This document shows positions 40,316 to 64,000 of a DNA stretch of 64,000 nt, in pieces. Position 1 is the stretch's first letter. Every line of letters starts with the position of its first letter. The DNA is from Isurus oxyrinchus. Its lineage: Eukaryota. Below the pieces are notes generated by a model that did not search any database, was not told the origin of the DNA, and saw only the letters and a program-made list of their open reading frames with translations. Where the stretch lies: positions 1-64,000 of the forward strand of contig JANJGN010000546.1 in assembly GCA_026770705.1 (NCBI GenBank), read 5' to 3'. Position numbers and translations under genes: made by a program.

Positions 40316-40505
40316 GTATTAACAGATGTAACATTATACATAATTCATAAGCTTCTCACAATCTTTTACAGCATGGAAAAAGGTGCAGCATTCAGAAAGC
40401 TCACTCAGAAACAATAAAAAAAGTTGAGCAACATCATATTTCTGTTCATTACTATTTGACCATGTTGGCTGCACACACCCCACAGCCCCGCTCCCTGTTT
40501 CACAC

Positions 40506-40753
40506 TCAGTTTTTCTGGAACCTGATCTGTGCGTATTCCGTTTCCTCGCTCCTGTGCACAGTCCTGTCACCGCCGGGCAGCTTTGAAAAGTTGATGTTGG
40601 CGTAGAAAAGCTCGTCTGGTTTGTCGGGGTTCCCATGTCCAACATCGCCTCCCACTGGACCTTCAGAGAGACCCCGGGAGCTGGGGTCTCCCCCTCGCTA
40701 GTTGTGTCTCTGGTTGTGTTCCGGGCCTCAGTAATCAGCACGTTCTGTTTACC
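40506..40753 (-). pseudogene. Terminal cytoplasmic exon, tail module B, 1-bp frameshift (ancestral frame ITIM LFYANI + ITSM TEYAQI)
   Basis: Paralog of 43481-43729, 248 vs 249 nt. The plus-strand run ccccgggg has lost one G (40676-40678). Corrected frame reads ...DKPDELFYANINFSKLPGGDRTVHRSEETEYAQIRFQKN-stop. Confidence 0.75.
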
Positions 40754-40872
40754 CTACAGAGAAATTAAAACAGAAGACATCCTCACATCATTTACTGGTA
40801 CTGATAGGGTTAAATTATTGTGCAGACTTGTTTAATTCTCTCTCTCCTATCGGAAAAAAGACACCACCTATG

Positions 40873-41056
40873 GCAGTGCAGCACTCCCTCAGTACTGATC
40901 TTCCAACAGTGCAGCACTCCCTCAGTGCTGACCCTCCGACAATACAGCGCTCCCTCAGTACTGACCCTCTGTCAGTGCAGCACTCCCTCAGTACTGACCC
41001 TCCAACAGTGCAGCACTCCTTCAGTACTGACCCGCTGTCAGTCCCGCACTCCCTCG
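40873..41056 (-). repeat. SINE-derived 30-bp minisatellite (paralog 43874-44122)
   Basis: cagtgcagcactccctcagtactgaccctc repeats. Confidence 0.85.
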
Positions 41057-41181
41057 GTAATGGCTCTGGTGAGTGACGGCTTGGATTCTGCGCTCAGGTG
41101 CCTGGTGTGAGGCTCAATAACATGAACCTTGTAATCAGAGAGAGGATGAGAGAGAGGGATAGAGGAGGGATAGAGACAGAG

Positions 41182-42114
41182 TGTTATTAATCTATTAATG
41201 TTTGTATTGCAATTGCAAACTGTCTATTTAAACAGAGGTTTAGTCTGTGTGTGTGTCTGTGTGTATTTTAATTGGATTAAAGCCAGCCAGTCTGTGTGCT
41301 TTGATGTATAGTAGTTTTGAGATGTAAACAAAGAGGTAAAGTGGTAATTTGCATTTTTAAATAAAACATTCAAAGTCTGAGAGTGAAATGTTAAACCAAT
41401 CAACGTTTATATTACTAATAAAATTGATACGATGAAAGAGGATTTATTATTGGAAGAGATGGAGTTCAAAGGTCCTGATGATACATTGCGAATTTACCTT
41501 CAAACAGAAGCCATAAGACCATAAGACATAGGAGGAGAAATTAGACCATTCGGTCCATCGAGTCTGCTCCACCATTCATACATGGCTGATATGTTTCACA
41601 AACCCCATTCTCCCACCTTCTCTCCTAACCATTGATCCCCTGACCAATCAAGAGCCCATCAATCTCCATCTTCTTCACACTCAAGAGCTGGGTATAACTT
41701 GAGCAGTTTTGTGTGTGCAGAGCAGAGGCTTGTAACATCAAAGCAGCTGTAAGCCTACACCTGTCTGCAAAGGAACCAAAGTGAAAGGAACCTCATTTGG
41801 AATTTGTGAGGTGAAAATGCTTTGCCTGGTGTCTGCTTAAAGTCTATGGGTTGTCTTGGAGGAGATTAGTTTGAGAATTTGTTATAAAGTTATGATAATA
41901 CTAGTTTGTAGCCATGTGCATATGTTTAACTTGTGAAAATTAATAAATGTCTCATTTAGATTGATATAAAATCATCTTGAGAACTGGTGGTCTTATTCCT
42001 GAATTTAGAGATGCATCTCAAACATTCCACTGCGAAATATAGGTTACGACAGCTGTTTAAAGTTTCCCTCTGGGATTTTAAGCAACAGCCTTTACCAGTT
42101 GCTGTGTCATAACA
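41182..42114 (+). mobile_element. Solo LTR with inserted CR1 3' tail (~41510-41680); truncated paralog at ~44270-44580
   Basis: TGTTATTA...TCATAACA termini, flanks cagag/gagag. Confidence 0.65.
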
Positions 42115-42249
42115 GAGAGACAGCATGATACTGAACCATTGCTGACTCCACAGGTACAAATCAGTGGGTAACTGGGCTGGGAATCTGGGACATATGTTGT
42201 CTACACACTGAGATTGAAGCTTTGGAGTGAGTGTAAACAGCTCCTGTAC

Positions 42250-42331
42250 CTGGTGATTCACAGAGAGTGGACTGGGGGTCAATGCAATGTCACTGGTCCC
42301 TGAAACTCTCTCCTCCATCGCTGTCTTTCTC
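42250..42331 (-). CDS. Cytoplasmic exon 1, tail module B (82 nt, phase 2-0)
   Basis: Paralog of 44716-44797 with intact splice sites. RKTAMEERVSGTSDIALTPSPLSVNHQ. Confidence 0.65.
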
Positions 42332-42464
42332 CTGCAATAACAAAATATCACACTGTGGTTATCATATAGCAGAGAGTCAGTGCAGCACAGACACAGAGCC
42401 CACTGTAACCTTACACCAATGACTGGACTCTCTCTTTAAATCACCTCTGCACAAAGCACAGAAT

Positions 42465-42930
42465 CAAGACGCTCGACACCATCCAGGACAAAGCAGCCCG
42501 ATTGATCCATACCACATCCACCACATTAAACATTCACTCCCTCCACCATGAACACACAGTGGCAGCAGTGTGTGTACCATCTACAAGATGCACTGCAGCA
42601 ACTCAGCAAGGCTCCTTCAACAGCACCTTCCAAATACGCGACCTCTACCATCTAGAAGGACAAGGACAGCAGACACATGGGAACACCACCACCTGGAAGT
42701 TCCCCTCCAAGTCACTCACCATCCTGACTTGGAAATATATCACCATTCCTTCACTGTCGCTGGGTTAACATCCTGGAATTCCCTCTCTAACAGCACTGTG
42801 GGTGTACCTACACCACATGCACTGCAGCGGGTGAAGAAGGTAGCTCACCACCACCTTCTCAAGGGCAGTTAGAGATTGGCATCAATGCGGACATCACCAG
42901 TGACAGCCACATTCGATGTAAGAATTAAAA
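42465..42930 (+). mobile_element. CR1-group LINE 3' fragment (paralog 44930-45400)
   Basis: Reverse complement of the family at 38225-38660 (caggacaaagcagccc...). Confidence 0.75.
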
Positions 42931-42948
42931 ATCTCACAGCTCAATGTA

Positions 42949-42954
42949 TTTATT
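42949..42954 (-). promoter_or_regulatory. Candidate polyadenylation signal for tail A
   Basis: AATAAA on the minus strand ~530 nt after the tail-A stop, just before the junction into tail module B. Confidence 0.4.
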
Positions 42955-43480
42955 GTGACCCTGCTGCACACACGCCCTGTCGAAGGAACCTCTGTGGTTC
43001 CATTGTTAATCGAAGCAGATCAGAGTTACTGCAACAACTTGCATTTATATAGCACCTTCAATGTAGCAAAATGTCCCAAGGCTCATCCGGGGATTGTTAG
43101 TCACATTTCACCTGACTCTGAGGCACATGAGGAGATATTAGGGACAGGAGACCAACAGCTGAGTCAACAAAGTCAGTCATTAAGGGTCATCTTAAAGGAG
43201 GAGCAAGAGATAGAGAATGAGAGACTGACACAGAAAGAAAGAGAGAGACAGAGAGGAAGAGAGAGAGAGAGAGAGAGAGACAGTGAATCTCACTCCTCAA
43301 TGGCTCAGCATCCAGTCCTCTCTGGAGAAGCATTTCATTCCAAACCACACCAACCGCAGCCCAATTCCATCCCTTCCTCCCTCTCTCCCCCTCTCCCCCA
43401 GTGGGTTGTTTCCTGTTCCCAGGGATCTCAATCCCTACCCGCACACCCACATCTCCTCACTCCCACTCCCCATTTCTCAT

Positions 43481-43729
43481 TCAGTTATGCTCAAACCTGA
43501 TCTGTGCGTATTCCGTCTCCTCTTCCCTGTGGACAGACCCATCATCACTGGACACCCTCAAAACTTGGGGATTGGCGTAGAGAAACTCTTCAGGTTTGCC
43601 GGGGTTCCCAAGTCCAGCATCGCCTCCCACTGCATCTTCAGAGAGACCCCGGGGAGCTGGGGTCTCCCCCTCACTAGTTGTGTCTCTGGTTGTGTTCCGG
43701 GGCTCAGTAATCAGCACGTTCTGTTTACC
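43481..43729 (-). CDS. Terminal cytoplasmic exon, tail module A (degenerate ITIM FLYANP + ITSM TEYAQI)
   Basis: Acceptor ttctctgtag. GKQNVLITEPRN...EEFLYANPQV...EEETEYAQIRFEHN-stop. Siglec-type two-tyrosine tail. Confidence 0.85.
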   Translation of the reverse strand, partial: GKQNVLITEPRNTTRDTTSEGETPAPRGLSEDAVGGDAGLGNPGKPEEFLYANPQVLRVSSDDGSVHREEETEYAQIRFEHN

Positions 43730-44715
43730 CTACAGAGAAATGGAAACAGAAGACATCCTCACATTATTTACTGGCACTGATAGGGTTAAATTATTGTGCA
43801 GCTTCGTTAATGTCAGTCGTGTCTCAGTGGGTTTAACTCTCTCTCCCATGTCTTATGAAAGAAACCACCTATGGCAGTGCAGTGCTCCCTCAGGACTGAC
43901 CCTCCAACAGTGCAGCACATCCTCAATAGTGACCCTCTGTCAGTCTCGCACTCCCTCAGTACTGACCCTCTGTCAGTCTCGCACTCCCTCAGTACTGACC
44001 CTCCGACAGCGCAGCAAAAACCTCAGTACTGACCCTCTGACAGTGCAGCGCTCCCTCAGTACTGACCCTCCGATGGTGCAGCGCTCCCTCAGTACTGACC
44101 CTCTGTCAGTCTCGCACTCAATCGGTAATGGCTCTGGTGAGTGACGGCTTGGATTCTGCACACAGGTGCCTGACGTGAGGCTCAATAACATGAACCTTGT
44201 AATCAGAGAGAGGATGAGAGAGAGAGAAAGAGAGAGAAAGAAAGGGAGGTTGAGATAGAGAGAGAAACTGGAATTTGTGAGGTGAAAATGCCTGGAATCT
44301 GCTTAAAGACTATGGGTTGTCTTAGAGGAGATTAGTTTGAGAATTTGTTAAAAAGTTATGATAATACTAGTTTGTAACCATGTGCATATGTTTAACTTGT
44401 GTAAATTAATATATGTCTCATTTAGTTTGATATAAACCCATCTCGAGAACTGGTGGTCTTATTCCTGAATTTAGAGATGCATCTCAAACATTCCACTGGG
44501 AAATATAGGTTATGACAGTTGTTTAAAGTTTCCCTCTGGGTTTTTAAACAACAGCCTTTACCAGTTGCTGTGTCATAACAGAGAGACAGCATGATACTGA
44601 ACCATTGCTGACTCCACAGGTACAAATCAGTGGGTAACTGGGCTGGGAATCTGGGACATGTGTTGTCTACACACTGAGATTGAAGCTTTGGAGTGAGTGT
44701 AAACAGCTCCTGTAC

Positions 44716-44797
44716 CTGGTGCTTCACAGAGAGTGGACTGGGGGTCAATGCAATGTCACTGGTCCCTGAAACTCTCTCCTCCATCGCTGTCTTCCTC
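44716..44797 (-). CDS. Cytoplasmic exon 1, tail module A (82 nt, phase 2-0)
   Basis: Acceptor ttattgcag, donor gtacag. RKTAMEERVSGTSDIALTPSPLSVKHQ; phase matches both the TM exon and the next exon. Confidence 0.8.
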
Positions 44798-45520
44798 CTG
44801 CAATAACACAATATCACACTGTGGTTATCACATAGCAGAGAGTCAGTGCAGCACAGACACAGTGCCCACTGTAACCTTACACCAACGACTGGACTGTCTC
44901 TTTAAATCACTTCTGCACAAAGCACAGAATTAAGAAGCTCGACACCATCCAGGACAAAGCAGCCCGATTGATCTACACCCCATCCACCACATTAAACATT
45001 CACTCCCTCCACCATGAACACACAGTGGCAGCAGTGTGTGTAACATATACAAGATGCACTGCAGCAACTCAGCAAGGCTCCTTCAACAGCACCTTCCAAA
45101 CCCACGACCTCTACCATCTAGAAGGACAAGGGCAGCAGACACATGGGAACACCACCACCTGGAAGTTCCCCTCTAAGTCACTCACCATCCTGACTTGGAA
45201 ATATATCACCGTTCCTTCACTGTCGCTGGGTCAAAATCCTGGAGCTCCCTCTCTAACAGCACTGTGGGTGTACCTACACCACATGGACTGCAGTGGGTCA
45301 AGAAGGCAGCTCACCACCTCATTCTCAAGGGGCATTTAGGGAATGGGCAATTAGTATTGGCCACGCCAGTGACAGTCACATTCGATGTAAGAATTTAAAA
45401 TCTCACAGCTCAGGAGGGAGCCACTCAGCCCATCGTGCCTGTGCTGGCCCTTTGTAAAAACTGTCCAATTAATCCTAAACAAATGTTTATATTAAAATCA
45501 AGTTAAATCTTCAGACTTAC

Positions 45521-45617
45521 TTTCTCACACAGATGAAGATGAAGATTCCAGCCAGGAAAACACTCAACATGATCCCAGCCGTGAACAATCCTACTGTCCA
45601 TTTACTGGAGTCTCTAC
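45521..45617 (-). CDS. Siglec-like gene, transmembrane exon (97 nt, phase 1-2)
   Basis: Acceptor ttttacag, donor gtaagt. GRDSSKWTVGLFTAGIMLSVFLAGIFIFICVRK is hydrophobic with no intramembrane charged residue. Not in the ORF track. Confidence 0.88.
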
Positions 45618-46044
45618 CTGTAAAAACAGTCATTAATTACTGCACTACAGGTTTACAATGATGCTCCGATGTATCTCGAGAAGCGATACACTCACTCAGT
45701 GTTTAAATACTCATTCTCGGGCAATGCTGACATTTATTGTCCATCCCTAGTTTCCCCTTGAGAAGGTGGTGGGGGGTCTTCCTCCTGAACCACTGGTTTG
45801 TCCCAAACTGGGAGACCAGTTCAGAGGGCAGGTAAGAGTTAACCATGTTGGTGTTTGAGACTGGAGTCACATACACACCCAGACCTGTTAAAATGGACAG
45901 GTTTCCCTCACTAAATGTGTAATTATATCTTTAATTTCTATATATATGTATCAACTAACATCACTAAAATAATCATTTATCACCTCATCTTCACACTGTT
46001 GTTTGTGGGATCTTGCTCTGCACAAATCAGCTGTTGCGTTTCTC

Positions 46045-46195
46045 AACGTAATCTATGTAACATTTATATATAATATTTATCAATGTAATCTATGTAACAT
46101 TTATATATAATATTTATCAATGTAATCTATGTAACATTTATATATAATATTTATCAATGTAATCTACGTAATGTTTATATATAATATTTTATCGT
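46045..46195. repeat. AT-rich 37-bp tandem repeat, ~4 copies
   Basis: atctatgtaacatttatatataatatttatcaatgta. Confidence 0.9.
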
Positions 46196-46538
46196 TTGGG
46201 AGGAGAACCTGAGTATTGCTGAGAAAGGACATTTTGTCAAAGCTTTCTGTCTTGCACCCAATGAAGCAGCTTATCTGGTGGAGAGGGTTCCAGATTTCCA
46301 CTCCCCTTTGTGTGAAGAAGTGCTTCCTGACATCACCCCCTGAACGGCCTGGCTCCAATTTGACCAAGTGTTGCCATTGTCACATGAGGTCAGACGATTC
46401 AAAGCTTGGTCAAAGGGGTCAGTTGTAAAGAGCATCTTAGAGGAGGTAGAGAGAGAGGTGGAGAGGTTGAGGGAGCGAATTCTCGAGTTTAGGGATCAAT
46501 CCAGCTGAGTGGAGATCGATCCTGAGCGAGTCTTTCAC

Positions 46539-46832
46539 CTTTGACCCACAGATACATCTTGAACATGGCTTCCCCGTGTGGGTTTTGAACCGAGCAGGAT
46601 GCAATCACTCCCCCCTCATCCTGGGGTCTCATCAGGGTGAGGGAACCAGTCACCAGATGCCCATCTCTGACCTGCCACGACACAAAACCTCCGTGTGTTT
46701 GGTTACCACTGATGTTGGCACTGGGCAGGTGCCAGGTGAGGTCTCCGGGTGGGTTGGAGTTGGCCACACAGATGCAGGTGACCCCCTCTGACCTCCGAGT
46801 GCACTCTGACTGCTGGGAAATCTCCGGCTTAT
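46539..46832 (-). CDS. Siglec-like gene, membrane-proximal Ig exon (MAG domain-5 type; 294 nt)
   Basis: Acceptor ctcctcag, donor gtgaaa. KPEISQQSECTRRSEGVTCICVANSNPPGDLTWHLPSANIS...CSVQNPHGEAMFKMYLWVK. The C...CxCVxxSNP motif matches the last Ig domain of MAG and related Siglecs. Confidence 0.85.
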
Positions 46833-46919
46833 CTGAGGAGGGAAGGACAACAATGAGACAACTTCATAGCAAAGTTAGAGCGTAAGATAGAATCTTCACA
46901 CTGAAACACTCATTCCTGC

Positions 46920-47660
46920 CTTTGTTACCTCCGTACTCGACTATCGCAACACTCTCCTGCCCGACCTCTCATCTTCCACTCTCCGGAAACATCAGCTCAT
47001 CCCAAACTCTGCTGTCCCCATGTCCTAACTCACACCGAGTCCCGTTCAGACATCACTCCCTGTTGGTCACTGAGCTACACTGGCTCCCGGTCCGACAATG
47101 CCACAATTTTAAAATTATCATCGTTTCAAATCCCTCCTTACTCCCTCCCTATCTCTGTAACCTCCTCAAGCCCCTACAACCCTCCCTATCTCTGTAACCT
47201 CCTCCAGACCCTACAACCCTCCCTATCTCTGTAACCTCCTCCAGACCCCACAACCCTCCCTATCTCTGTTACCTCCTCCAGCATCTACAACCCTCCCTAT
47301 CTCTGTTACCTCCTCCAGCCCCTATAACCCTCCCTATCTCTGTTACCTCCTCCAGCCATCACAACCCTCCCTATCTCTGTAACCTCCTCCAGACCCCACA
47401 ACCCTCCCTATCTCTGTAACCTCCTCCAGCATCTACATCCCTCCGAGGTCTCTGCGTTCCTCCAATTCCGGCCTCTTGACCATCCCCCGATTCCTACCGC
47501 TCCACCATTGGCGGCCGTGCCTTCAGCTGCCTGGGCCCCGAGCTCTGGAATTACCTCCGTAAACCTCTCCATTTCTATCTCTCTCCTCATTTCAGACACT
47601 CCTTAAAATCCGGCCTCTTTCTCTGAGCTTTCAGTCCCTGTTCTAATATCTCCTTATGTA
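46920..47660 (+). mobile_element. L2-type LINE 3' fragment with 32-bp minisatellite (47140-47440)
   Basis: ELHWLPV...FKI motif; ctccctatctctgtaacctcctccagcccctacaac repeats. Confidence 0.75.
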
Positions 47661-47788
47661 TCTCGGAGAGGCGCAGGGTGAAAAAAGCAGGGAGGTGATG
47701 CTAGTTATGCTAAACCACAGCAAGGAAGCTGCCCTCAGACAGAAAGTGTTTGAGTTTTAAGCAGAGACAGGGGGAGTAAAATGCTTAC

Positions 47789-48064
47789 ATTGTACGTTCA
47801 GGTGGGTGATGTTGGAGGTGCTGTTACCCACTGGGTTCCTCGCTGTGCAGTAGAAACCTGCATCATTCTCCCGTGTTACAGGAGTGAAGGAGAGAGTGCG
47901 GCTACTTGTGTTTAACTGGGTGCTGGTGTTCCCCTCGATCCTGAACCAGGTGTAATGAGATATCGGTGGGACACTTTCACTGGAGCAGGTTAATGTGATA
48001 TTGCTTCCCTCTCTTATCCCACCTGAGGATCTGCTGATGGACACCATCGTCTCCTGTGGGGAAT
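47789..48064 (-). CDS. Siglec-like gene, C2-set exon (276 nt, phase 1-1)
   Basis: Acceptor gttccag, donor gtaagc. SPQETMVSIS...GSNITLTCSSESVPPISHYTWF...DAGFYCTARNPVGNSTSNITHLNVQ, a CD22/Siglec-type C2 domain. Confidence 0.88.
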
Positions 48065-48384
48065 CTGGAACAAAGACAGAGAACAATCAGCAGGTAATCC
48101 CCACACCCCACAGCTCTCCGAAATCTCTGCGCTCCTCCAATTCCGACCCCTTGCACATTCTCCCATTCCCATCTCTCCACCATTGGCGGCCGTGCCTTCA
48201 GCTGCCTGGACCCTAACCTCTGGAATTCCCTCCATCATTTCTCACCTCCTTCGGACAAAATCTGACCCCGAGTCACATTAGGAGATATTAGGAGAGGTGA
48301 GCAAAAGCTCGCTGAAAGCAGGAGGTTTTAATGGTGTGTCTTAATGGTTTTAAGGAGCATCTTAATGGTTGAGAAAGAGTTGGA

Positions 48385-49605
48385 GATTGTGTATCTCCCG
48401 CGCATCCCCCCTTGCAAATTCCTCTCCCTCCCAGAGCAATGTAAGGGTCCCTCCTGTCTTCACTTTTCACCCCACCAGCCTCCTCATTCAAAGGATCATT
48501 CTCCGCCATTTCCGCCAACTCCAGCATGATGCCACCACCAAACACATCTTCCCTTCACCACATCCGCCCCCCCCACCCCCCCCCACGTTGGCATTCCACA
48601 GGGATCATTCCCTCCAGGACACCCTGGTCCACTCCTCCATCACCCCTAGCATCTCAACCCTCTCCGATGACATCTTCCCATGCATTTGCAGAAGGTGCAA
48701 CACCTGCCCCTTTACTTCCTCCCCCCTCACTGTCCAATGACCCAAACACTCCTTCCAGGTGAAGCAGCGCTTCATGCAGACTTCCTTCAATATAATCTAC
48801 TGCATTCACTGCTCCCAATGTGGTCTCCTCTACATTGGAGACACCAAACACAGACTGGGTGATCGCTCTGATGAACACCTTCGGTCTGTCCACAAGCATG
48901 ACCCAGACCTCCCTGTCGCTTGCCATTTTAACACCCCACCCTGCTCTCATGCCCACATGTCCGTCCTTGGCCTGCTGCATTGTTCCAGTGAAGCCCAACA
49001 CAAACTGGAGGAACAGCACCTCATCTTCCGACCTGGCACTTTACAGCCTTCCGGACTGAATATTGAGTTCAACAATTTCAGATCATGAACTCTCTCCTCG
49101 ATCTTCACTGCTTTTTGAACCCTTTTTTTATGTATTCATTTTAATTGTTTTATTTGTTGACTGTTTTCCACTTATTTTTATTATTATTATTTGAAATTCA
49201 TTTCCATTTTTATTGATTGTTTTATCCACAGATTTTAGTCTATTTTCGATCTTTATTCCCTCCACCGTCCCCTCCCCCTGCCACACCCCCACAAGGGCCA
49301 TCTGTCTCTTTCCAGAGTGCTTACCCTGGTCCCCCATTATCACACTCTGCTTAATGTCACCATTAGCACCTCCTTTATCCAATACCACCACTGTTAACAA
49401 CCCTTTGACCTTTTGTTTATGACATCTTCCACAATCTCTCCATTGCCTCCACCTATCGCTGGTTTTCTATCCAGCTCCACCTGTCCCATCGCCCCCCCTT
49501 AGACAGGATATATTTCACCACATGTCTACTTCCCTTTAGCTCTGAAGAGGAGTCTTACGGACTCCAAACGCTAACCCTGTCTTTCTCTCCACAGATGCTG
49601 CCAGA
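48385..49605 (+). mobile_element. Penelope-like element 3' part (GIY-YIG endonuclease) with terminal repeat remnant
   Basis: NIIYCIHCSQCGLLYIGDTKHRLGDRSDEHLRSV...VACHFN...GTLQPSGLN. Confidence 0.85.
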
Positions 49606-49915
49606 TGCTCAGAATCAGCTGGATGGACAGAAAGACCAATGAGTGGCTTAGATCAAGAGGAGATGTTCAGCAATTAAAAGGGTTGTTCAGGACAGTTAGA
49701 GAGAGAAAGGTCGTCAAGTACGGAGATTGGAAACGAAGACCTGACAGCCTTGTCCTGACAACCATTGAAGGAGAAACTGAGAGCAAAAACAGAAAGAGAG
49801 AGGAAAAATTGGGTGTGTGGATAACGTGGACTGAGCGAGGATTGAAGAAAACTGGATTAAAAACAACACGATCCCAATGGCTCCACGGAGACCACGGAGA
49901 CAACAAACAAACAAA
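49605..49915 (+). mobile_element. RTE-clade LINE 3' fragment
   Basis: MLRISWMDRKTNE...RKVVKYG...IEG; ends in (CAAA)n. Confidence 0.65.
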
Positions 49916-49932
49916 TGTATCTCCACACTCAC

Positions 49933-50214
49933 ATTCCACAGTGATGGTTATGAATCCCTCCACTGCTCCATGTTCATTCTCTGCCACACACTGATAGTCT
50001 CCAGTGTCCCTGGATGTAACGTGAGGAATCACCAACCACAGCTCATTGTTGGAACTTGTTCTGTTCATTGGGACATTAAGATGTCGCCACGTCAGGTTAG
50101 AAGCTGGGAAGCTCTCGACAGAGCAGATTATCACTGCAGAATTCCGCTCAATTATGTTGATCGATGAAGCGTTAATCATATCAAGAGAAGTAATTGATGG
50201 GTTCCGTGGTGCAT
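49933..50214 (-). CDS. Siglec-like gene, C2-set exon (282 nt, phase 1-1)
   Basis: Acceptor tatttag, donor gtgagt. APRNPSITS...ICSVESFPASNLTW...DTGDYQCVAENEHGAVEGFITITVE. Confidence 0.88.
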
Positions 50215-50404
50215 CTAAATACAAATAAAGGTTTCATTGTGAGCAAACACAGTGCACAGCAAGACTCCAGGTATCATCTCTCTCCATCTGGTGTCTGTGT
50301 GCATGTCAAGGCTTCTTTCCCCATTATGATTTTCTATGTCACCATTTGTAACAGACACTGCCAGTGTGTTCCTTTTTGCATATTCATGGGAAGTGGATGT
50401 ATCT

Positions 50405-50720
50405 ATCTAGACCAGCATTTATTACCCATCCCTAATTGCCCTTGAGGAGGTGGTGGTGAGTTTTTCACCTCCAGAGGATTCCCAGCCTCTGACCGGCTCC
50501 TGTAGCCACAGTATTTATGGCCGGTCCAGTTCGGTGTTTGGTTAACATCCCCCAGGATGTGGATTGTGGGGGATTCAGCGATGTGAAAGTGATTGAATAT
50601 CAAGGGGAGATGGTTAGATTCTCTCTTGTTGGAGATGATCACTGCCTGGTGCTTGTGTGGTGTGAACATTACTTGTCATTTCTCAGCCCAAGCTGAGTGT
50701 TGTTCAGCTCTTGCTGCGTG
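50405..50720 (-). mobile_element. CR1-group LINE fragment
   Basis: ISNKRESNHLPLIFN...ESPTIHILG, the same family as 38760-39227. Confidence 0.75.
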
Positions 50721-51040
50721 TGGATATGTAAACTGTCACGCTGTAATTACAGCCTTCCACCAGAGGAGACACTGTCAGGCTAGAAGAAAAGAAAGTGTCT
50801 TTCACATGATCAGGATGTTCACGGAGATTTCACCATGGAGGAATTGCTTTGGAATAATGGGGTATTGGGTGATAAACCTACAATTCACTGTTCAGGAGGT
50901 TGCTCCATCCAATTCAGTGTCTTGATGATCTGGAGTTTACCTTCCTTCAACACAGAATCAGAGCTGCTACCGAGACTCAAGTGCAGCACTGAGACAGGAG
51001 AGGGAGCTGACACGTGTGTGTGTATGTGTGTTTGTGTGTG

Positions 51041-51104
<64 letters not shown>

Positions 51105-51126
51105 GTTGAAGTTTGCAGTAACTCAC

Positions 51127-51408
51127 GTTCCACAGTGATGGTTATGAACCCCTCCACTGCTCCATGTTCATTCTCTGCCACACACAGATAGTCTCCAGTG
51201 TCCCTGGATGTAACGTGAGGAATCACCAACCACAGCTCATTGTTGGAACTTGTTCTGTTCATTGGGACATTAAGATGTCACCACGTCAGGTTAGAAGCTG
51301 GGAAGCTCTCGACAGAGCAGATTATCACTGCAGAATTCCCCTCAATTATATTGACCGATGAAGCGTTAATCATATCAAGAGAAGTAAATGAGAGATTCTG
51401 TGGAGCAT
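51127..51408 (-). pseudogene. Duplicated C2-set exon with in-frame TGA (282 nt, phase 1-1)
   Basis: Intact ttcttag acceptor and gtgagt donor. Near-identical to exon 49933-50214, but TGG-CGA-CAT has become TGG-TGA-CAT (stop at 51278-51280). Confidence 0.85.
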
Positions 51409-52345
51409 CTAAGAACAAATCAAGTATTTAATGTGAGCAAGCACTGTGCACAGCAAGACTCCATGCATCATGTCTCTGTATCTGATGCCTGTGTGCATTT
51501 CTAGGCACCTTCCCTCAAGATAAGTTCCTATGTCACATTTACAATGGGCACTGCCTATGTAAACTGACACACTGCAGGAGCATTCTCCCACCAGAGACCC
51601 TGCCCATCCGGATTTAAAGAAACTCCCTTTCACATCCTCAGGATGTCCCCAAGGGCTTGACAGGCAATGAATTATATTTAATCGATGGAGCACTGAGGGG
51701 TAAATCTACAATTCTCTGTTAAGGATTTTGCTCATCCAATTCAGGGTCTTGTTGATCTGGAGTTTACCTTCCTTCAACACAGAATCAGAGCTGACACCGA
51801 GACTCCAGTGCAGCACTGANNNNNNNNNNNNNNNNNNNNNNNNNNNNNNNNNNNNNNNNNNNNNNNNNNNNNNNNNNNNNNNNNNNNNNNNNNNNNNNNN
51901 NNNNNNNNNNNNNNNNNNNNNNNNNNNNNNNNNNNNNNNNNNNNNNNNNNNNNNNNNNNNNNNNNNNNNNNNNNNNNNNNNNNNNNNNNNNNNNNNNNNN
52001 NNNNNNNNNNNNNNNNNNNNNNNNNNNNNNNNNNNNNNNNNNNNNNNNNNNNNNNNNNNNNNNNNNNNNNNNNNNNNNNNNNNNNNNNNNNNNNNNNNNN
52101 NNNNNTGTGCATGTGNNNNNNNNNNNNNNNNNNNNNNNNNNNNNNNNNNNNNNNNNNNNNNNNNNNNNNNNNNNNNNNNNNNNNNNNNNNNNNNNNNNNN
52201 NNNNNNNNNNNNNNNNNNNNNNNNNNNNNNNNNNNNNNNNNNNNNNNNNNNNNNNNNNNNNNNNNNNNNNNNNNNNNNNNNNNNNNNNNNNNNNGTGTGT
52301 GTCTGTTGGTGCGTGTGTGGTCTGTGTAACCTGTAAACCTAACCC

Positions 52346-52379
52346 TTCCACACTGATGGTCACGAACACCCCCCACTGC
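52346..52379 (-). pseudogene. Remnant 3' end of a third copy of the duplicated C2 exon
   Basis: ttccacactgatggtcacgaac...cactgc aligns to ttccacagtgatggttatgaac...cactgc (FVTISVE vs FITITVE). Flank 51700-51820 repeats 50870-50993. Confidence 0.55.
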
Positions 52380-52399
52380 CAACAAATTTATCTCAGTAA

Positions 52400-53400
52400 G
52401 GAACATGGCACTGCCAACCCCGTCAATACCATCTTCTAAACGGGGGATTGGGTAGGAATCTGGTTTTATTGCTGCATTAACCTTTCTGTAATGTATGCAG
52501 AATCTGGTTGGAAATGAAATACCTGCTCCTTTTTACCTCCCTCCCTACGATGGTATCGTTTTAACATATTGATGTGTCACAGCCGATTCTTTATTCTACA
52601 ATCTGGGGTGTGTATCAAATAATTTACTTGACCAACCCTCCTAATTACCTTGTGGGGACCACTGAACCGCGCTTTCAGAGGCTCCCCCTGCCAAGGCAAT
52701 GATACTAACACGTCATCCCCCTGGTTGAGATGTTCGGGTCACAGCTTGCCTGTCTACCCCATTCCTTCATCTCTGTTTGAGAAACTATAAGATGTTCTTG
52801 TGCCACTTTGGAGGCTCCCATGAGCCGTTCCTGAAACATGGACACATCATCTGAAATAGAGGATTCATCCCTCTGTCCGGAATATCTTTCTTTGATGAAT
52901 TTCAGACAGCCTCTTATCTCGTGTCCATAAGTTATTCCAAAAAGACTAAAACCTGCCGATTCAGTTGGTGAATCTCGTGTGGGAAATGCAAGAAAATCCA
53001 GTCCTTTGTCCCAGTCATGGGGAGTTCATGACAATAGCTTCAATCATTGTTTTGAGGGTTTGTTGGTCCCTCTCTAAAGATCCCCGTGTCTATGGATGAT
53101 ATGCTGTGGACTTTAACTGTTTTATACCCAAATTACTCATTATGTTCGGAAAATTTTAAGACATAGAGATGGAACCTTGATCTGACTGGATCTCCAGCGG
53201 TAATCCATAATGGGTAAAAAATTGGGTTAACTTCCCTATTACTACTTTAGCTGTAATTGTTCCTAAAGGGATGGTCTCTGGAAATTGAGTTGTCATATCC
53301 ATCATAGTGAGGCCATACTGGAGTCCGGCTTTCATTTTCGATAATGGTCTAACACAGTCCACTAATGCTCGTATCCAATGGTAACGGACAATTAGCTCAC
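52400..53400 (-). mobile_element. Gypsy-type LTR retrotransposon integrase fragment (decayed)
   Basis: LTMMDMTTQFPETIPL...FFTHYGLPLEIQSDQGS, an rve core motif. Confidence 0.75.
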
Positions 53401-53569
53401 TGGAGGAGGGGAATCCACAAATATCCCCATCCTCAATGATGGGGGAGCCCAGCACATCAGGGCAAAAGATAAGGCTGAAGCATTTGCTACAACAATTATC
53501 CATTTCTGTCTGGCGTAAAAATAAGTCAGGAAATGGTGCTCAACCAGGGCTTACAAAAGAAATTAGGGA

Positions 53570-55570
53570 TAGTATTAGATCCAGAGAGGAGACATAAAAT
53601 TGCCAGGGGAAGCAGCAATGCTGAGGATTGGGAGCAGTTTAGAATTCAGCAAAAGTGGACAAAAAGATTGATCAAGAAGGGGAAAATGGAACATGGGAGT
53701 AAACTTGCAGGGAACGTAAAAACCGACTGTAAAAGCTTCTATAAATATGTGAAGAGAGAAAGATTAGCAGTGACCGATGTAGGTTCCTCGCAGTCAGAAA
53801 TGGGGGAAATTCTAATGAGAAACAAAGAAATGGCAGAAGACCTGAACATATATTTTGGTTCTGTCTTCACAAAAGAGGACACAAATAATTTCCCAGGAAT
53901 GTTAGGGAACCAAGTGTCTAGTGAGAGGGAGGAATTGAAGATAATCAGGATTAGTTTTAAAAAATGGAGCTGGAGAAATTAATGGGTTAAAGGTTGAACA
54001 GTCCCCAGGGCCTGAAAATCTACATCCCAGAGACTAACGGAAGTGACCCTGGAAATATTGGAAGCACTGGTGGTCATCCTCCAAAATTCTATAGGCTCTG
54101 GAGCAGTTCCTATAGATTGGAGGGTGGCAATTGTAACCCCACTATTTAAAATAGAAGGGAGAGAAAAAAACTGGGAATTACAGATCAGTTAGTCTAACAT
54201 GGGGAAAACGCTAGAGCCTATTATATAAGGTGTGCTAACGGAACGCTTGGAAAGCTTTAATGGGATTAGACAAAGTCAGCATGGGTTAATGAAAGGAAAA
54301 TCATGCTTAACTAATCTACTGGAGATTTTGAGGATGTAACTTGTGGAATAGATAAGGGATAACCAGTGGATGTGGTGTTTTTAGATTTCAAGAAGGCTTT
54401 TGATAAGGTCCCACATAAGAGGCTAGTGGGCAACATTAAAGCCCATGGGATTGGGGGTAATTTACTGGCATGGATTGAGAATTGGTCAACAGACAGGAAA
54501 CAGAGGGTCAGAATAAATTAGTCTTTATCTGAGTGGCAGGCGGTGACTAGTGGTGTACCACAGCGATCCGTGCTTGGGACCTAACTATTCACGATATATT
54601 TAAATGACTTGGGTGAAGGAGCCAAGTGCAATATTTCCAGGTTTTCTGATGACACAACGCTGGGTAAGGGTGTGAGCTGTGAGAAGGATGCAAAGAGGCT
54701 TCAAGGCGATTTAGACAAGTTGTGTGTGTGGGCAAACACATGGCAGATGATGTGGATGAATGTGACATTGTAGGCTTTGGTGTGAAAAACAGAAAGGCAG
54801 AGTATTATTTAAATGGTGATATAATGGGAAATGTGGATGTATAAAGGGATCTGGGTGTCCTTGTGCACTAGCCAATGAAAGTAAACAGGCAGGTGCAGCA
54901 AGTAATTCGGAAGGCAAATGGTATGTTGGCCTTCATTGCAAGAGGATTTGTGTTCAGGAGTAGGGATGTCTTACTGCAGTTATACAAGGTCTTGGTGAGA
55001 CTGCACATGGGATACTACGTGCCGTTTTGCTCTCCCTCCCTAAAAAAGGATAGACTTGCCGTCGAGAGAGCGCAGAGAAGGTTCTCTAGGCTGATACCAG
55101 GGGCGGCAGGACTGTCGTATGAGGAGAATTGGTACGACTGGGTCTGTATTCACTAGAGTTTAGAAGAATGAGAGGAGACCTGAATAAACGTAAGAAATTC
55201 TAACAGAGATAGACAGACTGGATGGAGGGAGGATGCATCCCTTGGTTGGGGAGTCTAAAACCAAGGGCGACAATCTCAGGATACAGGGCAGGCCATTTTG
55301 GACTGAGATAGGGAAACATTTCTTCACTCAGAGGGTGGTCAATCTGTGGAATTCTCCATCACAGAGGCTGTGGAGGCCGGGTCACTGAGTGTATTCAAGA
55401 AAGAAACTGATAAATATTTTGATATTAGGGGCATCAAAGGGTACGGAGAGAAAGCGGGAATAAGGCTTTGAGATAGAGGGTCAGCCTTGATCATATTGAA
55501 TGGCGGAGAAGGCTTGAAGGGCTGAATGTCCTAATCCTGCTCCTAGTTTCTATGTACCTAGGTATCTATA
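53570..55570 (+). mobile_element. 5'-truncated CR1 LINE (~2 kb, multiple stops and frameshifts)
   Basis: KTDCKSFYKYVK, gatttcaagaaggcttttgataaggtccc (DFxKAFDKVP), KANGMLAFIARG; tail tttctatgt. Confidence 0.9.
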
Positions 55571-55927
55571 GAACTATCTCTCTCCGTGTTCTATTCTCAT
55601 GTGACCTTGAGTAACTGATGATAAATACTATCTATTTACATTGTTAATATTAAACTTTTATACTACATCTCCCCCAAAATCTTTGACATCAATGAAGACA
55701 ATATTTATATTATCCTATATTGTCTTTTAAGTTCAACCTTGGCCCCCTCTGCCCTATCAGGTAGGCATAAACAATCCCAAGGCTCAATACAGGAAGAGCT
55801 CTCCCTGGTCAATATCACTAATAAAAAAGGACCTGTTTTGTCTTCAACCCAGTGATGTTTGTGGGATCTTGCTCTGCACATTGTATCCTATTACAGCTAA
55901 TATAGAATGAAGGGAATCCATACTTAC

Positions 55928-56224
55928 ATTTTACAGTTAGCATAAGGGTCTGCTCCGATGAAACAGATGGATATCTCACTCTGCAGCTGAGAGTGTGTCC
56001 GTGGTGTTTGAGTGATGGGGTCAGGGTCAGAACAGAAGTATAGGTCAGAGTGACACCATGCTGAGTTACAGTGTTTGAGACTGATCCAGGTACGTCAGTG
56101 AGAGTGTCCCAGGTTAAGACAGGTGCTGCTGTTCCATTGCACGTTGTGTTGAAGGTGCAGCTTACATCCACACGCTTTCCTGCAATAATTTCAGCAGGGA
56201 ATATCATGGGTTTATCTGTGAAAT
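55928..56224 (-). CDS. Siglec-like gene, first C2-set exon (domain 2; 297 nt, phase 1-1)
   Basis: Acceptor gtgttag, donor gtaagt. DFTDKPMIFPAEIIAGKRVDVSCTFNTTCNGTAAPVLTW...HHGHTLSCRVRYP. The CxxxxxC...P.LTW pattern with the extra Cys is typical of Siglec domain 2. Confidence 0.88.
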
Positions 56225-56569
56225 CTAACACACAGAGAATGGATCCTTTTAGAGAAATATAACGTGAAGCATCAGTTCAAATAGAAATCACAGTCCCACA
56301 AGAGAAAGCACTTTTACAAGGATGATATCAGAACTGAGAGATTACAATGATCAGGAGAGAATTTCCTATTTTCAGACTTAGTGGAGTTTCTGTCACTCAG
56401 ATGAATTCACTTCCACTTTGAGACAATTGAATTGACAATCCCGGGTGAGGGTGGGGGAGCAGCTCACAGTTCCTGACACACTGGCTTGTTACTTTCTCCG
56501 AAATCTGCCAGATTTAAATTCTATCCAGTTCCCAGCAGGAGAGAATCCATTTGAACCAATCACTGAACC

Positions 56570-56760
56570 GGCATTTAAAGCAGACGATCAGGTTATTGAT
56601 CACATTGCTGTTTCTGGGAGCTTCCTGTGCACAAATTGGCTGCTGTGTTTCCCAGATTACAACAAGGGCTACATTTCAAGAATTATTTCAATGGTTGTGA
56701 ATCCATTTGCGACGTCCAGAGGTGGTGAAAGGTGCTATAGAAATGCAAATCTTTCTTTTG
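56570..56760 (+). mobile_element. Deu-SINE 3' fragment
   Basis: atcacattgctgtttctgggagc...aaaggtgctatagaaatgcaa. Confidence 0.7.
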
Positions 56761-57036
56761 TTGATATGTAAAAGTTTTAAACAGGATTAGGGAGATTGAT
56801 GTAAGTGGATAACCTGATAACATTGATGGACACAGTCAATACATTTAATCATTGATATTAAAGTGGTATTAGAGGTTGTTTTAGGACTGAACTGGAAGCT
56901 ATCACCAGGTTATTGAGAATCAGACAGTGTGTTATAATAAGCTGTGTTTTGTGTTAATATGTAAACGTCACAGTTTGTGTTATTTCCCATTGAGTGTTGA
57001 ATGTGAATTGTTGAGTAATTATAACACAGCACTTAC

Positions 57037-57405
57037 CAGAAACGTGAAGCTGGGTTACAGGGTAATAGTTATAGCTCGGACCATTGTCAAATTCTATTCT
57101 GAAAAAATAAGGTCCTGCATCTTCCCGTCTGATGTTGTTTATAATCAGGGAACAGTCGCCATCTTTCAGGTCTCCAGACAGCCGGGTCCGATGGTGGAAC
57201 CGTGGTAACTCGTGACTGTGATCCTTGGAGTGAAAGGCAATGGGAGCCCAGGGAATCTCTTTCTCGTTATTAAACCAGACTCCACCTCGCGGTTGGTTTT
57301 CCGGACACGATGGATAACTGTAATGACATGGAATCTGTACACACGAACCTTCCTGCGCTGTCACCTCTCGTGGACTGTCACCTTTCCACTCTTGTGAGGG
57401 TTTAT
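57037..57405 (-). CDS. Siglec-like gene, V-set Ig exon copy B (proximal; 369 nt, phase 1-1)
   Basis: Same splice sites as copy A and an open frame. By my count 9 nt differences from copy A (7 non-synonymous). YFFRIE retained. Confidence 0.9.
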
Positions 57406-57439
57406 CTGGGGAGAGAAATCTCAATATTTAACTCTGGAT

Positions 57440-58110
57440 GGTTTGTGGATCCACTAGACTCAAAATTTACAGATGAGGCTGAATTGGGGGGATGGTCAAT
57501 ACTGAGGAGAATGGCAACAAATTATTTTGGCAGGAAGAATAGAAAAACAGGATATTATTTAAATGGAGACAGGCTGCAGAATGCAGTACAGAGGGATCTG
57601 GGTGTCCTTGTACATGAATCACAGAAAGTCAGCATTCAGGATCACCACGGAATGAGGAAGGCAAGTGGAATGTTGGCCTTTATTGCAAAGGGATGGAGTC
57701 TAAAAGGAGGGAGTTTAGAAGAATGAGGGGTGACCTTATTGAAACATATCCGATTCCGAGGGGGCTTGACAGGGTGGATGCTGGGAGGATGTTTCCCCCT
57801 CGTGGGGGAATCTAGAACCAGGGAGCACAGTTTCGGAATGAGGGCTCTCCCATTTAAGACTGAGATGAGGAGGAATTTCCTCTCTCAGAGGGGCGCTAGC
57901 CTGTGGAATTCTCTTCCCCAGAGAGCAGTGGAGGCTGGGCCATTGAATAGACTCAAGGCTGAGTGAGGCAGGTTTTTGATCGACAAGGGAGTCAAGGGTT
58001 TGGGGGACAGGCAGGAAAATGGAGTTAAGGCCACAACCAGATCAGTGAGAGCAGGCTCGAGGGGCCGAATGGCCTGCTCCTGTCCCTATTTCTTATGTTC
58101 CTACATTCTT
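57440..58110 (+). mobile_element. CR1 3' fragment (paralog ~60800-61650)
   Basis: QRDLGVLVHESQK...KASGMLAFIAKG, FKTEMRRNF; tail ttcttatgttcc. Confidence 0.85.
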
Positions 58111-58174
58111 ACCTTCTTAAAATATTAAAGCTGCAGAATAAACATGCAAGTGACTGACCCGCTCGACCCACCTT

Positions 58175-60160
58175 CCATCAGGGGCTGGAGGAGCTTACAC
58201 AGATAGGGAGGTTTGTGGGGGCTGGAGGAGGTAACAGAGATAGGGAGGGCTGTAGATGCTGGAGGAGGTTACGCAGATAGGGAGGGTGGTAGGACCTGGA
58301 GGAGGTTGCAGAGATAGGGAGGGCTGTAGGGACTTGAGGAGTTTATGGAGATGGGGAGCGTGTAGGGACTGGAGGAGGCTGCAAGGGCAGAGAGGGTTTT
58401 AGGGGCAGGAGGAGTTTACAGGGATAGGAAGAGTTGTAGGGGCTGGACGGATTGCAGAGGTAGGGAGGGTTGGAAAGGCTGGTGGAGGTTTCAGAGGTAG
58501 GGAAGGTTGCAGGGACTGGAGGATTTACAGAGATGGGGGAGTTTTTGGGGCAGGATGGGGTTACAGAGATAGGGAGGGTTGTAAGGGCAGGACGAGGTTA
58601 CATAGATATGGAGTGTGGCTGGGGCTGAGGGAGGCTACAGAGATAGGGAGGGTTATAATGGCTGGAGGAGGTTACAGAGATAAAGGAAACTCTTAGGGAC
58701 TGGAGGAGGTTACAGAGATAGGGAGGGTTGTAGTGGGCTGGAGGAGGTTACAGAAATATGAAGGGTTGTAAGAGATGGACCAGCTTACAGAGATAGGGAG
58801 AGGTATTCGGTCTGGAGGAGGTTGCAGAGATAGGGGAGGTTGTTAGGACTGGAGGAGGCTACATATATCGCGAGGGTTATCGGGGCTTGAGGAGGTTAAA
58901 GAGATAGGGAGGGGTGTTGGGTCCGGAGGAGTTTGCAGTGATAGGAATGGTTTTCGGGATTGGAAGAGAGTACTGAGATAGGAGGGTTGTAGGGACTGGA
59001 GGAGTCTCCTGAGATAGGGAGGGTTGTAGGGACTGGAGGAGGCTCCTGAGATAGGGAGGGTTGTAGGGACTGGAGGAGGCTCCTGAGATAGAGAGGGTTG
59101 TAGGGACTGGAGGAGGCTCCTGAGATAGGGAATGTTGCCGTGGATGAAGATAAAGGAGGAGATTACTGTAATAGGGAGGAAAAATATTCAAAAATTTGGA
59201 CATTGAGACTTTGCTTGACCAGGAGCCAGTCTCGGTCATCGAGCAGAGCGGGTGATAAGGGAACGGGACTTGGTGTGAGTAAGGACGTGGTCAGCAGTTT
59301 TGGATGGCCTCAAGTTTATGGAGTGTAGAGCATGTGAAGGTAATGAAGGCGTGGATGAGGGTTTCAGCAGCAGATGAGCTGAGACAGGGTGAAGTCGTAC
59401 GACGTTATGGAGGTGGAAATAGACGGTGTTAGTGAGGGCGCAGATATGAGGCCGGAAGCTCATCTCAGGATCAAAGGGGACAACAAAGCTGTGAACAGAT
59501 TGGCTTCAATCTCAGAGAGCTGCCAGGGAGAGGAATGGAGTTGGTAGTGAGGGAACAGAGTTTGGAGCGGGGAATGAAGACAATGGCTTCAGTCTTTCCA
59601 ATATTTAATTGGAGGGAATTTCTGCCCATCCAGTACTGGATGTCGGATAAGCAGCCTGATAATTTAGCAGCAGTGGAGGAGTCGAGAGAGGTGGTGGTGA
59701 GGTAGAGCTGGGGATCCTCAGTGGACAGGTGAAAACTAACACTGTTCAGATGATGCTGCAAAGCCATTGCAAGTGATTCTCTGGCTACGATGAGATGGAT
59801 AAGAATGGAGCCAGGGGAGAGCAGTCCCACCCAGCTGGACGACAGTGGACAGGTGTTGGAGGAGGATGGTGTGGTCGAGCGTGTCAAAGGCTGCAGACAG
59901 ATCGAGAAGGACGAGGAGGGAAAGTTGACCTTTGTCACAGTCACACAGGATGCCATTTGTGACCTTGATAAGAGCTGTTTCAGCACAGTGGCTGGGGTGG
60001 GAACCTGATTGGAGGGATTCAAACATGGAGTTCCGGGAAAGATGGAACCGGATTCGGGAGATGGAAACACGTTCAAGGACTTTGGAGGGGAAAGAGAGGC
60101 TGGAGATGGGACGGGGGTTTACACGGACAGTGTGAGGGGTGGAAGGTGTAGTGGGGAGGA
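58175..60160 (-). mobile_element. L2-type LINE fragment with expanded 32-bp minisatellite (58175-59130); paralog ~61720-63880
   Basis: RPISSLSFPSKVLER...ETALIKVTN...LLVLLDLSAAFDTLDHTILL (L2 RT). Confidence 0.85.
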
Positions 60161-60390
60161 GACACTTCACTCAGGGGGGAGGTGTCATCACCCCTCAGCT
60201 CGGTTTACGTTACAGCTATGATGTGGATTCAATCACACACAATAAGCTCATGGATCTGGGAGCAGAAATAGACAAATCATTAAAAATAGTGACGCTGGTT
60301 AACATGGCCAAAAAACAAGCAAATCAAACACTATTATTTCCCATTGAGTGTTGGATGTGAATTGTTGAGTAATTATAACACAGCACTTAC

Positions 60391-60759
60391 CAGAAACGTG
60401 AAGCTGGGTTACAGGGTAATAGTTATGGCTCGGACCATTGTCAAATTCTATCCTGAAAAAATAAGGTCCTGCATCTTCCCGTCTGATGTTGTTTATAATC
60501 AGGGAACAGTCGCCATCTTTCAGGTCTCCAGACAGCCGGGTCCGATGGTGGAACCGTGGTAACTCGTGACTGTGATCCTTGGAGTGAAAGGCAATGGGAG
60601 CCCAGGGAATCTCTTTCTCATTATTAAACCAGACTCCACGTCGCGTTTGGTTTTCCAGACACGATGGATAACTGTAATGACATGGAATCTGTACACACGA
60701 ACCTTCCTGCGCTGTCACCTCTCGTGGAGTGTCACCTTTCCACTCTTGTGAGGGTTCAG
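60391..60759 (-). CDS. Siglec-like gene, V-set Ig exon copy A (distal; 369 nt, phase 1-1)
   Basis: Acceptor tctctccccag, donor gtaagt. Translates EPSQEWKGDTPREVTAQEGSCVQIPCHYSYP...GDCSLIINNIRREDAGPYFFRIEFDNGPSHNYYPVTQLHVS. Siglec V-set hallmarks: N-terminal Trp, GSCVxIPC, E-strand DCSL, and YFFR with the sialic-acid-binding Arg. Confidence 0.9.
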
Positions 60760-63700: not shown

Positions 63701-64000
63701 TGGCTGGGGTGGGAACCTGATTGGAGGGATTCAAACATGGAGATCCGGGAAAGATGGGAACGGATTCGGGAGATGGAAACACGTTCAAGGACTTTGGAGG
63801 GGAAAGAGAGGCTGGAGATGGGACGGGGGTTTACACGGACAGTGTGAGGGGTGGAAGGTGTAGTGGGGAGGAGATACTTCACTCAGGGGGGAGGTGTCAT
63901 CACCCCTCAGCTCGGTTTACATTACAGCTATGATGTGGATTCAATCACACACAATAAGCTCATGGATCTGGGAGCAGAAATAGACAAATCATTAAAAATA

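Follow-up and report, generated by a model that had tools for sequence, protein, structure and literature searches.

Duplicated binding, stalk and tail exons in a Siglec-like gene of Isurus oxyrinchus, a probable member of an expanded shark and ray family

Introduction

A stretch of 64,000 nucleotides from Isurus oxyrinchus (contig JANJGN010000546.1, positions 1 to 64,000; hereafter the window) carries exons of a Siglec-like receptor gene whose binding, stalk and cytoplasmic tail modules are each present more than once. An initial annotation of this sequence had proposed that the copies, being compatible in splicing phase, allow one locus to assemble its isoforms combinatorially, in departure from the plan of one V-set domain and one tail found in most Siglecs. 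The locus raises the question of whether such a scheme is particular to it, or whether the duplications reflect the habits of a gene family or the decay of one copy. The answer that we consider probable, with some reserve, is that the gene belongs to an expanded shark-and-ray family of MAG-shaped Siglecs in which V, C2 and tail modules were repeatedly gained and lost and doubled tails are spliced in series, and that this particular copy is partly broken.

Results

Duplicated exons and their lesions

Exon boundaries were fixed by a script, with positions 39000-64000 read. The 12 exons all lie on the minus strand, and every one has an AG acceptor and, if internal, a GT donor. The two V-set exons, VB (60391-60759) and VA (57037-57405), are intact and identical at 360 of 369 nucleotides (97.6%). 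They belong to a tandem duplication whose unit spans 56980-60333 and whose copy starts at 60334 and continues past the window end at 64000. C1 (55928-56224), the second immunoglobulin (Ig) domain, is of the C2-set_2 type and present in one copy. The stalk domain exists as C2X (51127-51408) and C2Y (49933-50214), which agree at 269 of 282 nucleotides. C2Y is intact; in C2X the splice sites are kept, and codon 43, which encodes Arg in 112 of 128 matching family domains, reads as an in-frame TGA. A third C2 copy is reduced to a remnant of 34 nucleotides (52346-52379, minus strand), its 3' end only, with the donor lost; this remnant has a score of 41, reached in none of 200 shuffles (maximum 29). 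C3 (47789-48064), C4 (46539-46832), which resembles domain 5 of MAG, and the transmembrane exon TM (45521-45617), whose span has no charged residue, are followed by two tail modules. Tail A consists of A1 (44716-44797) and the last exon A2 (43481-43729), in which YANP replaces the immunoreceptor tyrosine-based inhibitory motif (ITIM), the distal TEYAQI is kept, and an internal phase-2 donor lies after 43497. Tail B consists of B1 (42250-42331) and the last exon B2 (40506-40753). In B2 the ancestral-type ITIM LFYANI and the distal TEYAQI are both out of frame through the loss of one nucleotide near 40677, in a short C/G run. A1 and B1 agree at 80 of 82 positions, A2 and B2 at 211 of 249.

All seven Ig exons are of phase 1-1, TM is of phase 1-2, A1 and B1 are of phase 2-0, and both tails fit the phase-2 end of TM. 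The module inventory of the initial annotation was thus recovered in full, together with the GT-AG sites of the complete copies, their phases and the lesions in two of the duplicates. Absent from that description were the lack of a leader, the passage of the V unit beyond the window, the non-ITIM proximal motif of tail A and the donor inside A2.

A search of the window for a leader exon gave only low-complexity matches of 8-13 residues, none of them fittingly placed, and a VA with its own leader was rejected on this ground. Relatives have a signal peptide, and the transmembrane exon is present in the window. The V repeat continues beyond the last base of the window and no leader lies in the window, so the 5' end of the gene, perhaps including more V exons, falls outside the sequence studied; what the window contains is the 3' part of one gene. 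No further Ig exon was found in the first 40 kb with 8 full-length relatives as queries and by inspection of long open frames. Within 51820-52294, 465 bases are N, so the sequence there is unread.

Module number varies throughout the family

Searching with VA among longer proteins gave 116 matches from 133 candidates; 115 were from sharks or rays, and the best (91-96%) were from white and basking shark. When the window exons were mapped onto 116 relatives, whose architectures are automatic gene models, adjacent V domains were found in 29 of them, adjacent domains of the C2Y type in 33, both in 4 and two tail modules in 3. V-V pairs occurred in 11 and C2-C2 pairs in 15 of the 21 taxon labels, and domain number reached 7 for V and 10 for C2. 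Doubled tails recurred in both lamniform species, white and basking shark. Pairs of V domains of the same class were present in other assemblies (P0012, P0001), and V number varied among white-shark RefSeq isoform sets, P0013 having two V domains and P0131 one. Duplication of V, C2 and tail modules is therefore a family-wide domain accordion, and the locus itself is not special; unequal crossing-over is the probable source of these exon gains and losses. The supposed departure from a one-V, one-tail plan does not hold for elasmobranchs, where the numbers of all three modules vary widely. The comparison of exon copy number among related species, which the initial annotation had recommended, did find the duplications, and found them so widespread in shark and ray models that they are not specific to this locus.

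Several white-shark paralogs (P0021, P0026, P0127, P0146, P0148, P0152) have ectodomains of near-identical V-V-C1 sequence, followed by a different membrane exon with Arg in its hydrophobic span and by a short tail that lacks tyrosine. Such a combination of membrane Arg and tyrosine-less short tail characterizes the activating partners of paired receptors. The Arg-type membrane exon of P0146 had no match in the window. In the basking shark, a CD22-like model (P0244) has accession numbers adjoining those of a locus of the family (P0001) and is placed on a contig of equal length (13,667,426), which hints at a CD22-linked cluster.

Tail modules of the family are spliced in series in likely RNA

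Tails with YANP were counted in white and basking shark only (23 cases), whereas tails of the I/V type (YANI, YASI) occurred in those and in six other species. Tail A is of the lamniform type without ITIM, its YANP standing at the place of the YANI or YASI of most sharks. Three white-shark models, each on a contig of its own (P0047, P0119, P0121), show the succession YANP then YANI, which indicates that the tail pair predates this copy. A pattern search among 445 collected proteins found the first tail joined to the second right after TEYAQIR in 14 of them; P0126 has the same joint, and all are from white or basking shark. In white-shark paralogs the joint is in frame and uses the internal donor just past TEYAQI.

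We then aligned four public runs, as contigs, to 40400-50990: one DNA run (X1, about half of it read) and three runs that are likely RNA (X4, X18 and X19). The joints described below are among those listed, and contig depth was taken as a measure neither of expression nor of copy number. The intron 42332-43496, of the GT-AG type, was skipped in contigs of X4 and X18 (43497 -> 42331), that is in two studies and two organisms, with 29 letters on the shorter side; B1 provides the acceptor of this in-series joint. Other joints connected TM to a first tail exon (X4 and X19), A1 to A2 (X4) and C3 to C4 (X19). No such tail or C3-C4 joint was among those listed for the half-read DNA run X1. Contigs of X4 matched C3 (269 nt) and C4 (202 nt) with 0 differences; the X4 organism is thus probably of the same species as the window, and exons of the C3/C4 type are transcribed. 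A further joint, 46084 -> 49660, removes C3 and C4 and was seen in X4 and, with 8 other letters between, in X1. Its presence in a DNA run indicates that paralogs lose modules at the DNA level too.

Among the RefSeq isoforms X1-X6 of one white-shark locus are forms with the two tails in series, with only tail B, with A1 joined to B2, and with A2 joined to B2 out of frame. Such isoform sets can be inflated by mis-mapped short reads among exons that are 95-98% identical. Alternative tail use, as initially suggested, finds support in these isoforms and in the joints from likely RNA; what they mainly contain, however, is tail A followed by tail B in series, an option which had not been considered, and tail B of this copy is frameshifted. 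Splicing of tails in series was observed for the family; the full combinatorial scheme at this locus was not.

A regulated cassette at one locus, kept by selection and yielding VA, VB or both, membrane or secreted receptors, and tail A, tail B or both, seems improbable to us. It would agree with the intactness of every splice site, with the variation of tails and V number in white-shark isoforms, with the in-series and TM-to-tail joints of the likely-RNA contigs, and with the closer likeness of C2X to C2Y and of A1 to B1 within the exons than in the sequences flanking them. However, no tyrosine motif of tail B is in frame in this copy, and as domains VA and VB hardly differ. The truncated secreted form of the initial annotation would require a premature stop long before the last junction, one that is likely to trigger decay. 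The isoform models may themselves reflect the mis-mapping just described, and the 'TM to B1' joint may come from the first tail exon of any paralog, as in a TM-to-A1-type joint, because only 2 of 82 bases distinguish A1 from B1. For another family of receptors, one whose binding domain is duplicated, single-domain splice forms are moreover described as marginal (PMC13187141).

The duplications differ in age

Divergence between copies depends on the module: substitutions amount to 1.9% over 3.3 kb for the V unit, 5.6% for the tail introns, and about 12% for the C2 unit and its flanks. The V, tail and C2 duplications thus differ in age and point to separate events, not to a single cassette design. 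Their matching phases, noted initially, follow automatically, because each time a phase-symmetric (1-1) exon, or a tail starting in phase 2, was copied with its flanks. VA and VB differ by 6 non-synonymous and 2 synonymous codon changes, a near neutral ratio with no sign of selection, and the V exon (2.4% diverged) is no better conserved than its flanks. In a tree of 50 V domains, 28 of the 47 inner branches were open and VA and VB fell in an open group of 22 rows; as the tree did not resolve them as sisters, their recent origin rests on DNA divergence. Between A2 and B2 the likeness is 95% in the first 100 nt and falls to 73% in the last 89, a pattern that conversion or a chimeric origin would produce.

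The low divergence of the V unit also bears on the quality of the assembly. If VA and VB were two haplotypes placed in tandem, or the B2 deletion a homopolymer error, or both, the real gene would have one such V exon and an intact tail B. Apart from the 1.9%, this would fit the position of the B2 deletion within a short C/G run and a B2-type contig of X18 which, among the indels listed, has one more letter over 40416-40752, albeit in another organism. The V copies, on the other hand, differ by several indels, the largest of about 170-190 bp, and meet at a clean junction with a short shared motif; same-class V-V pairs exist in the other assemblies mentioned above; the tail and C2 duplications are too diverged for such an error and are common to other species; and the stop in C2X is a CpG-type substitution, not an indel. 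We regard such an assembly error as very unlikely, although the B2 deletion, taken by itself, could be a homopolymer error.

Siglec identity and relation to MAG

VA and VB score above the cut-off for Pfam V-set and Ig_CD22. Compared with solved structures they match Siglec-5, -7, -8, CD33, Siglec-10, MAG and sialoadhesin, and the top PDB matches are all Siglecs. The Arg of a YFFR motif, retained in VB, aligns with YFFR of Siglec-5 and -7 and is present in 149 of 169 family V domains. We take this F-strand Arg to be the essential sialic-acid Arg of Siglecs, and sialic acid binding is predicted from its conservation. The Siglec cysteines of V and C1 (B-E intrasheet, V-to-C2 interdomain) align with those of MAG and Siglec-5/7 and are likewise kept in VB, where the interdomain cysteine would lack a C2 partner if VB precedes VA. 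C4 matches MAG domain 5, and closely related full-length proteins are colinear with all five MAG domains (E ~1e-58).

In a quick tree of V plus C1 (30 rows) the window fell in a starred clade of 10 elasmobranch rows, 7 bony-vertebrate MAGs forming a separate starred clade and deeper branches being open. Forcing the family and MAG together gave, on this quick tree, an approximately unbiased test value (p-AU) of 0.099 (not rejected), and of 0.046 when a second shark subfamily was included (borderline rejected). This subfamily, also MAG-shaped and found in sharks and rays (P0177, P0192, P0197, P0238), is about 38-42% identical to the first. A search with paddlefish MAG returned, among the best 120 of 128 matches, named elasmobranch proteins at 33% and 27% only; in the same matches of this word-limited search we saw no conserved one-to-one cartilaginous-fish MAG. 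The locus has the five-domain V-C2x4 arrangement with a MAG-type fifth domain, and lacks membership of the MAG clade, single-copy status and high conservation. Judged by sequence, it is a Siglec, a MAG-shaped and CD33-like receptor rather than a plain MAG orthologue. The assignment to a Siglec-like gene of a cartilaginous fish agrees with Pfam, PDB and the names of the relatives.

Likely product of this copy

Five tail isoforms were built from the window. Scanned with the ITIM consensus pattern, none of the 5 has an in-frame ITIM at the membrane-proximal position, and 3 keep TEYAQI, a distal ITIM-like or immunoreceptor tyrosine-based switch motif; rescue of the tail B ITIM by annotated donors was rejected, as it failed in all 5 combinations. 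With the stop in C2X and the frameshift in tail B, no built isoform keeps a canonical ITIM, and we infer the product (V)n-C1-C2Y-C3-C4-TM-tail A, which needs C2X to be skipped. Such a receptor is predicted to bind sialic acid and would carry one distal tyrosine motif, so that its inhibitory signalling may be weaker or altered. A premature stop far upstream of the last exon junction triggers message decay, and transcripts containing C2X, with their stop in the stalk, would likely be degraded. With two spare modules broken, probably only a small part of the conceivable isoforms is produced from this copy.

Several points weigh against this reading. No skipping of C2X was observed; in family models the tandem C2 exons are usually all retained, and the same here would turn this copy into a null. 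A search of the V-V junction for transcript-derived proteins gave no spanning match among 9 (10 candidates), all of them NCBI or UniRef models with at most 56% coverage of the junction. The family counts overstate the number of independent genes, because the models include isoforms of the same locus and fused neighbours (P0001, P0015, P0019, P0034). The RNA status of X4, X18 and X19 is a guess, supported by the splice joints seen in them, and these joints show a topology for the family that is not assignable to this locus, because paralogs are 90-99% alike.

Some of these points would suit a null allele or a decaying paralog, in which C2X is included by default, translation ends two and a half Ig domains into the protein and the transcript decays; the B2 frameshift would be a further lesion, with selection relaxed. 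The presence of two lesions and a truncated exon within a single copy is in line with this, as are the normal splice sites of C2X, the inclusion of tandem C2 domains in 33 of 116 relatives' models, and, for VA and VB, the near-neutral codon ratio and an exon diverged by 2.4% against 1.9% in the flanks. Common null alleles with a stop and a frameshift are described for human SIGLEC12 in the portion consulted of PMC6288428. The remaining exons are nevertheless all intact, and exons without a single difference from C3 and C4 occur in X4, though another allele or a near-identical paralog may be their source. We hold such a null copy to be unlikely, if a serious contender, and retain the partly broken member of a variable family as the favoured reading.

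Surroundings of the gene

Positions 1-36900 are occupied by three to four copies of a unit of 8.2-8.3 kb, 92-99% alike and composed of micro- and minisatellites, with a 12-mer array of up to 6.9 kb; no Ig exon was found within this repeat region. Broken retroelement pieces lie in introns of the gene (52380-55550, 57500-60170, 48445-49085) and at 38763-39305. From their translations we take them to be Gypsy-like (the reverse-transcriptase piece abutting the C2 remnant), CR1/LINE-like and GIY-YIG (Penelope-like). Six runs of N, 1133 bases in all (17441-17620, 18421-18577, 25660-25835, 26639-26793, 51820-52105 and 52116-52294), interrupt the window, several of them beside TG/CA repeats.

Discussion

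Relation to known systems

The closest counterparts are elasmobranch RefSeq models automatically named 'Siglec-12/13/10-like', 'CD33-like' or 'MAG-like' (Carcharodon XP_041037215-221 and XP_041037155; Cetorhinus LOC144671591), whose domains are 82-100% identical to those of the window. They likewise have variable V and C2 number and the YANP-then-YANI tail pair; the present copy differs in that both V domains are of the same class and very recent, and C2X and B2 are broken. A Dscam-type cassette is one of regulated, mutually exclusive duplicated exons; here tail joints were seen for the family only. No study of the shark Siglec family or its structure was found in the literature searched, which covers few subscription journals; comparative Siglec papers of 2009 and 2018 reportedly exist that may treat sharks.

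MAG (Siglec-4) has a V domain and four C2 domains colinear with those of the window family, including the unusual fifth one. The family is about 31% identical to chondrostean MAG, whereas bony-vertebrate MAGs are mostly 43-72% identical to it. The window family forms a starred clade apart from MAG and, unlike MAG, is multi-copy and varies in its number of domains. Splicing gives MAG the alternative tails of L- and S-MAG (PMC7072810); what sets these apart is a short alternative end, and in the window family it is duplicated modules. Fish MAG carries an ITIM, as stated in the excerpt available of PMC7226832; the same excerpt credits fish with four conserved Siglecs, without inhibitory CD33-related ones, and has no mention of sharks. 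In PMC8455134, as far as it was accessible, Siglecs are named once.

The best V-domain matches are to Siglec-5, -7, -8 and CD33, and the proximal ITIM with a distal motif is common to the window family and the CD33-related Siglecs. In the latter the two V domains of Siglec-12 are called an exception (PMC6829431 and PMC6288428, in the parts consulted), and cluster expansion, gene conversion and stop or frameshift null alleles are described for human Siglecs in the accessible parts of PMC6288428, PMC6829431 and PMC13358205; the pairs compared are Siglec-5/14 and 11/16. What distinguishes the shark and ray family from them is a V count that reaches 7 in gene models, together with doubled tails and a MAG-like C3-C4 stalk; the 30-row tree comprised no mammalian CD33-related rows. 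TGF-beta receptors offer another case of intragenic duplication of binding-domain exons with optional skipping, reported as marginal in the pages seen (PMC13187141); they differ by an unrelated fold and single-copy genes.

Implications for the family

Module duplication in the family is already visible in automatic annotation, and this single locus is one partly broken example whose chief value is as a pointer to the family. Features of note there are the variable V number, the lamniform ITIM-less tail, the in-series tail splicing with read support and the paralogs with Arg in the membrane span. Tentatively, elasmobranchs might run their own large expansion of MAG-shaped Siglecs through an exon accordion and not through gene number alone. 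It is possible, though doubtful at present, that mackerel sharks extended it with an ITIM-less tail carrying its own internal donor. Splicing in one gene could then select a tail with an ITIM, one without, or a double tail, and would thereby encode an analogue of paired receptors, next to Arg-membrane paralogs that would activate. Tails concatenated by splicing would then offer a testable mode of tuning inhibition. If this view is true, the multi-copy and fast-shuffling elasmobranch Siglecs would date lineage-specific arms races among Siglecs as far back as the cartilaginous fish.

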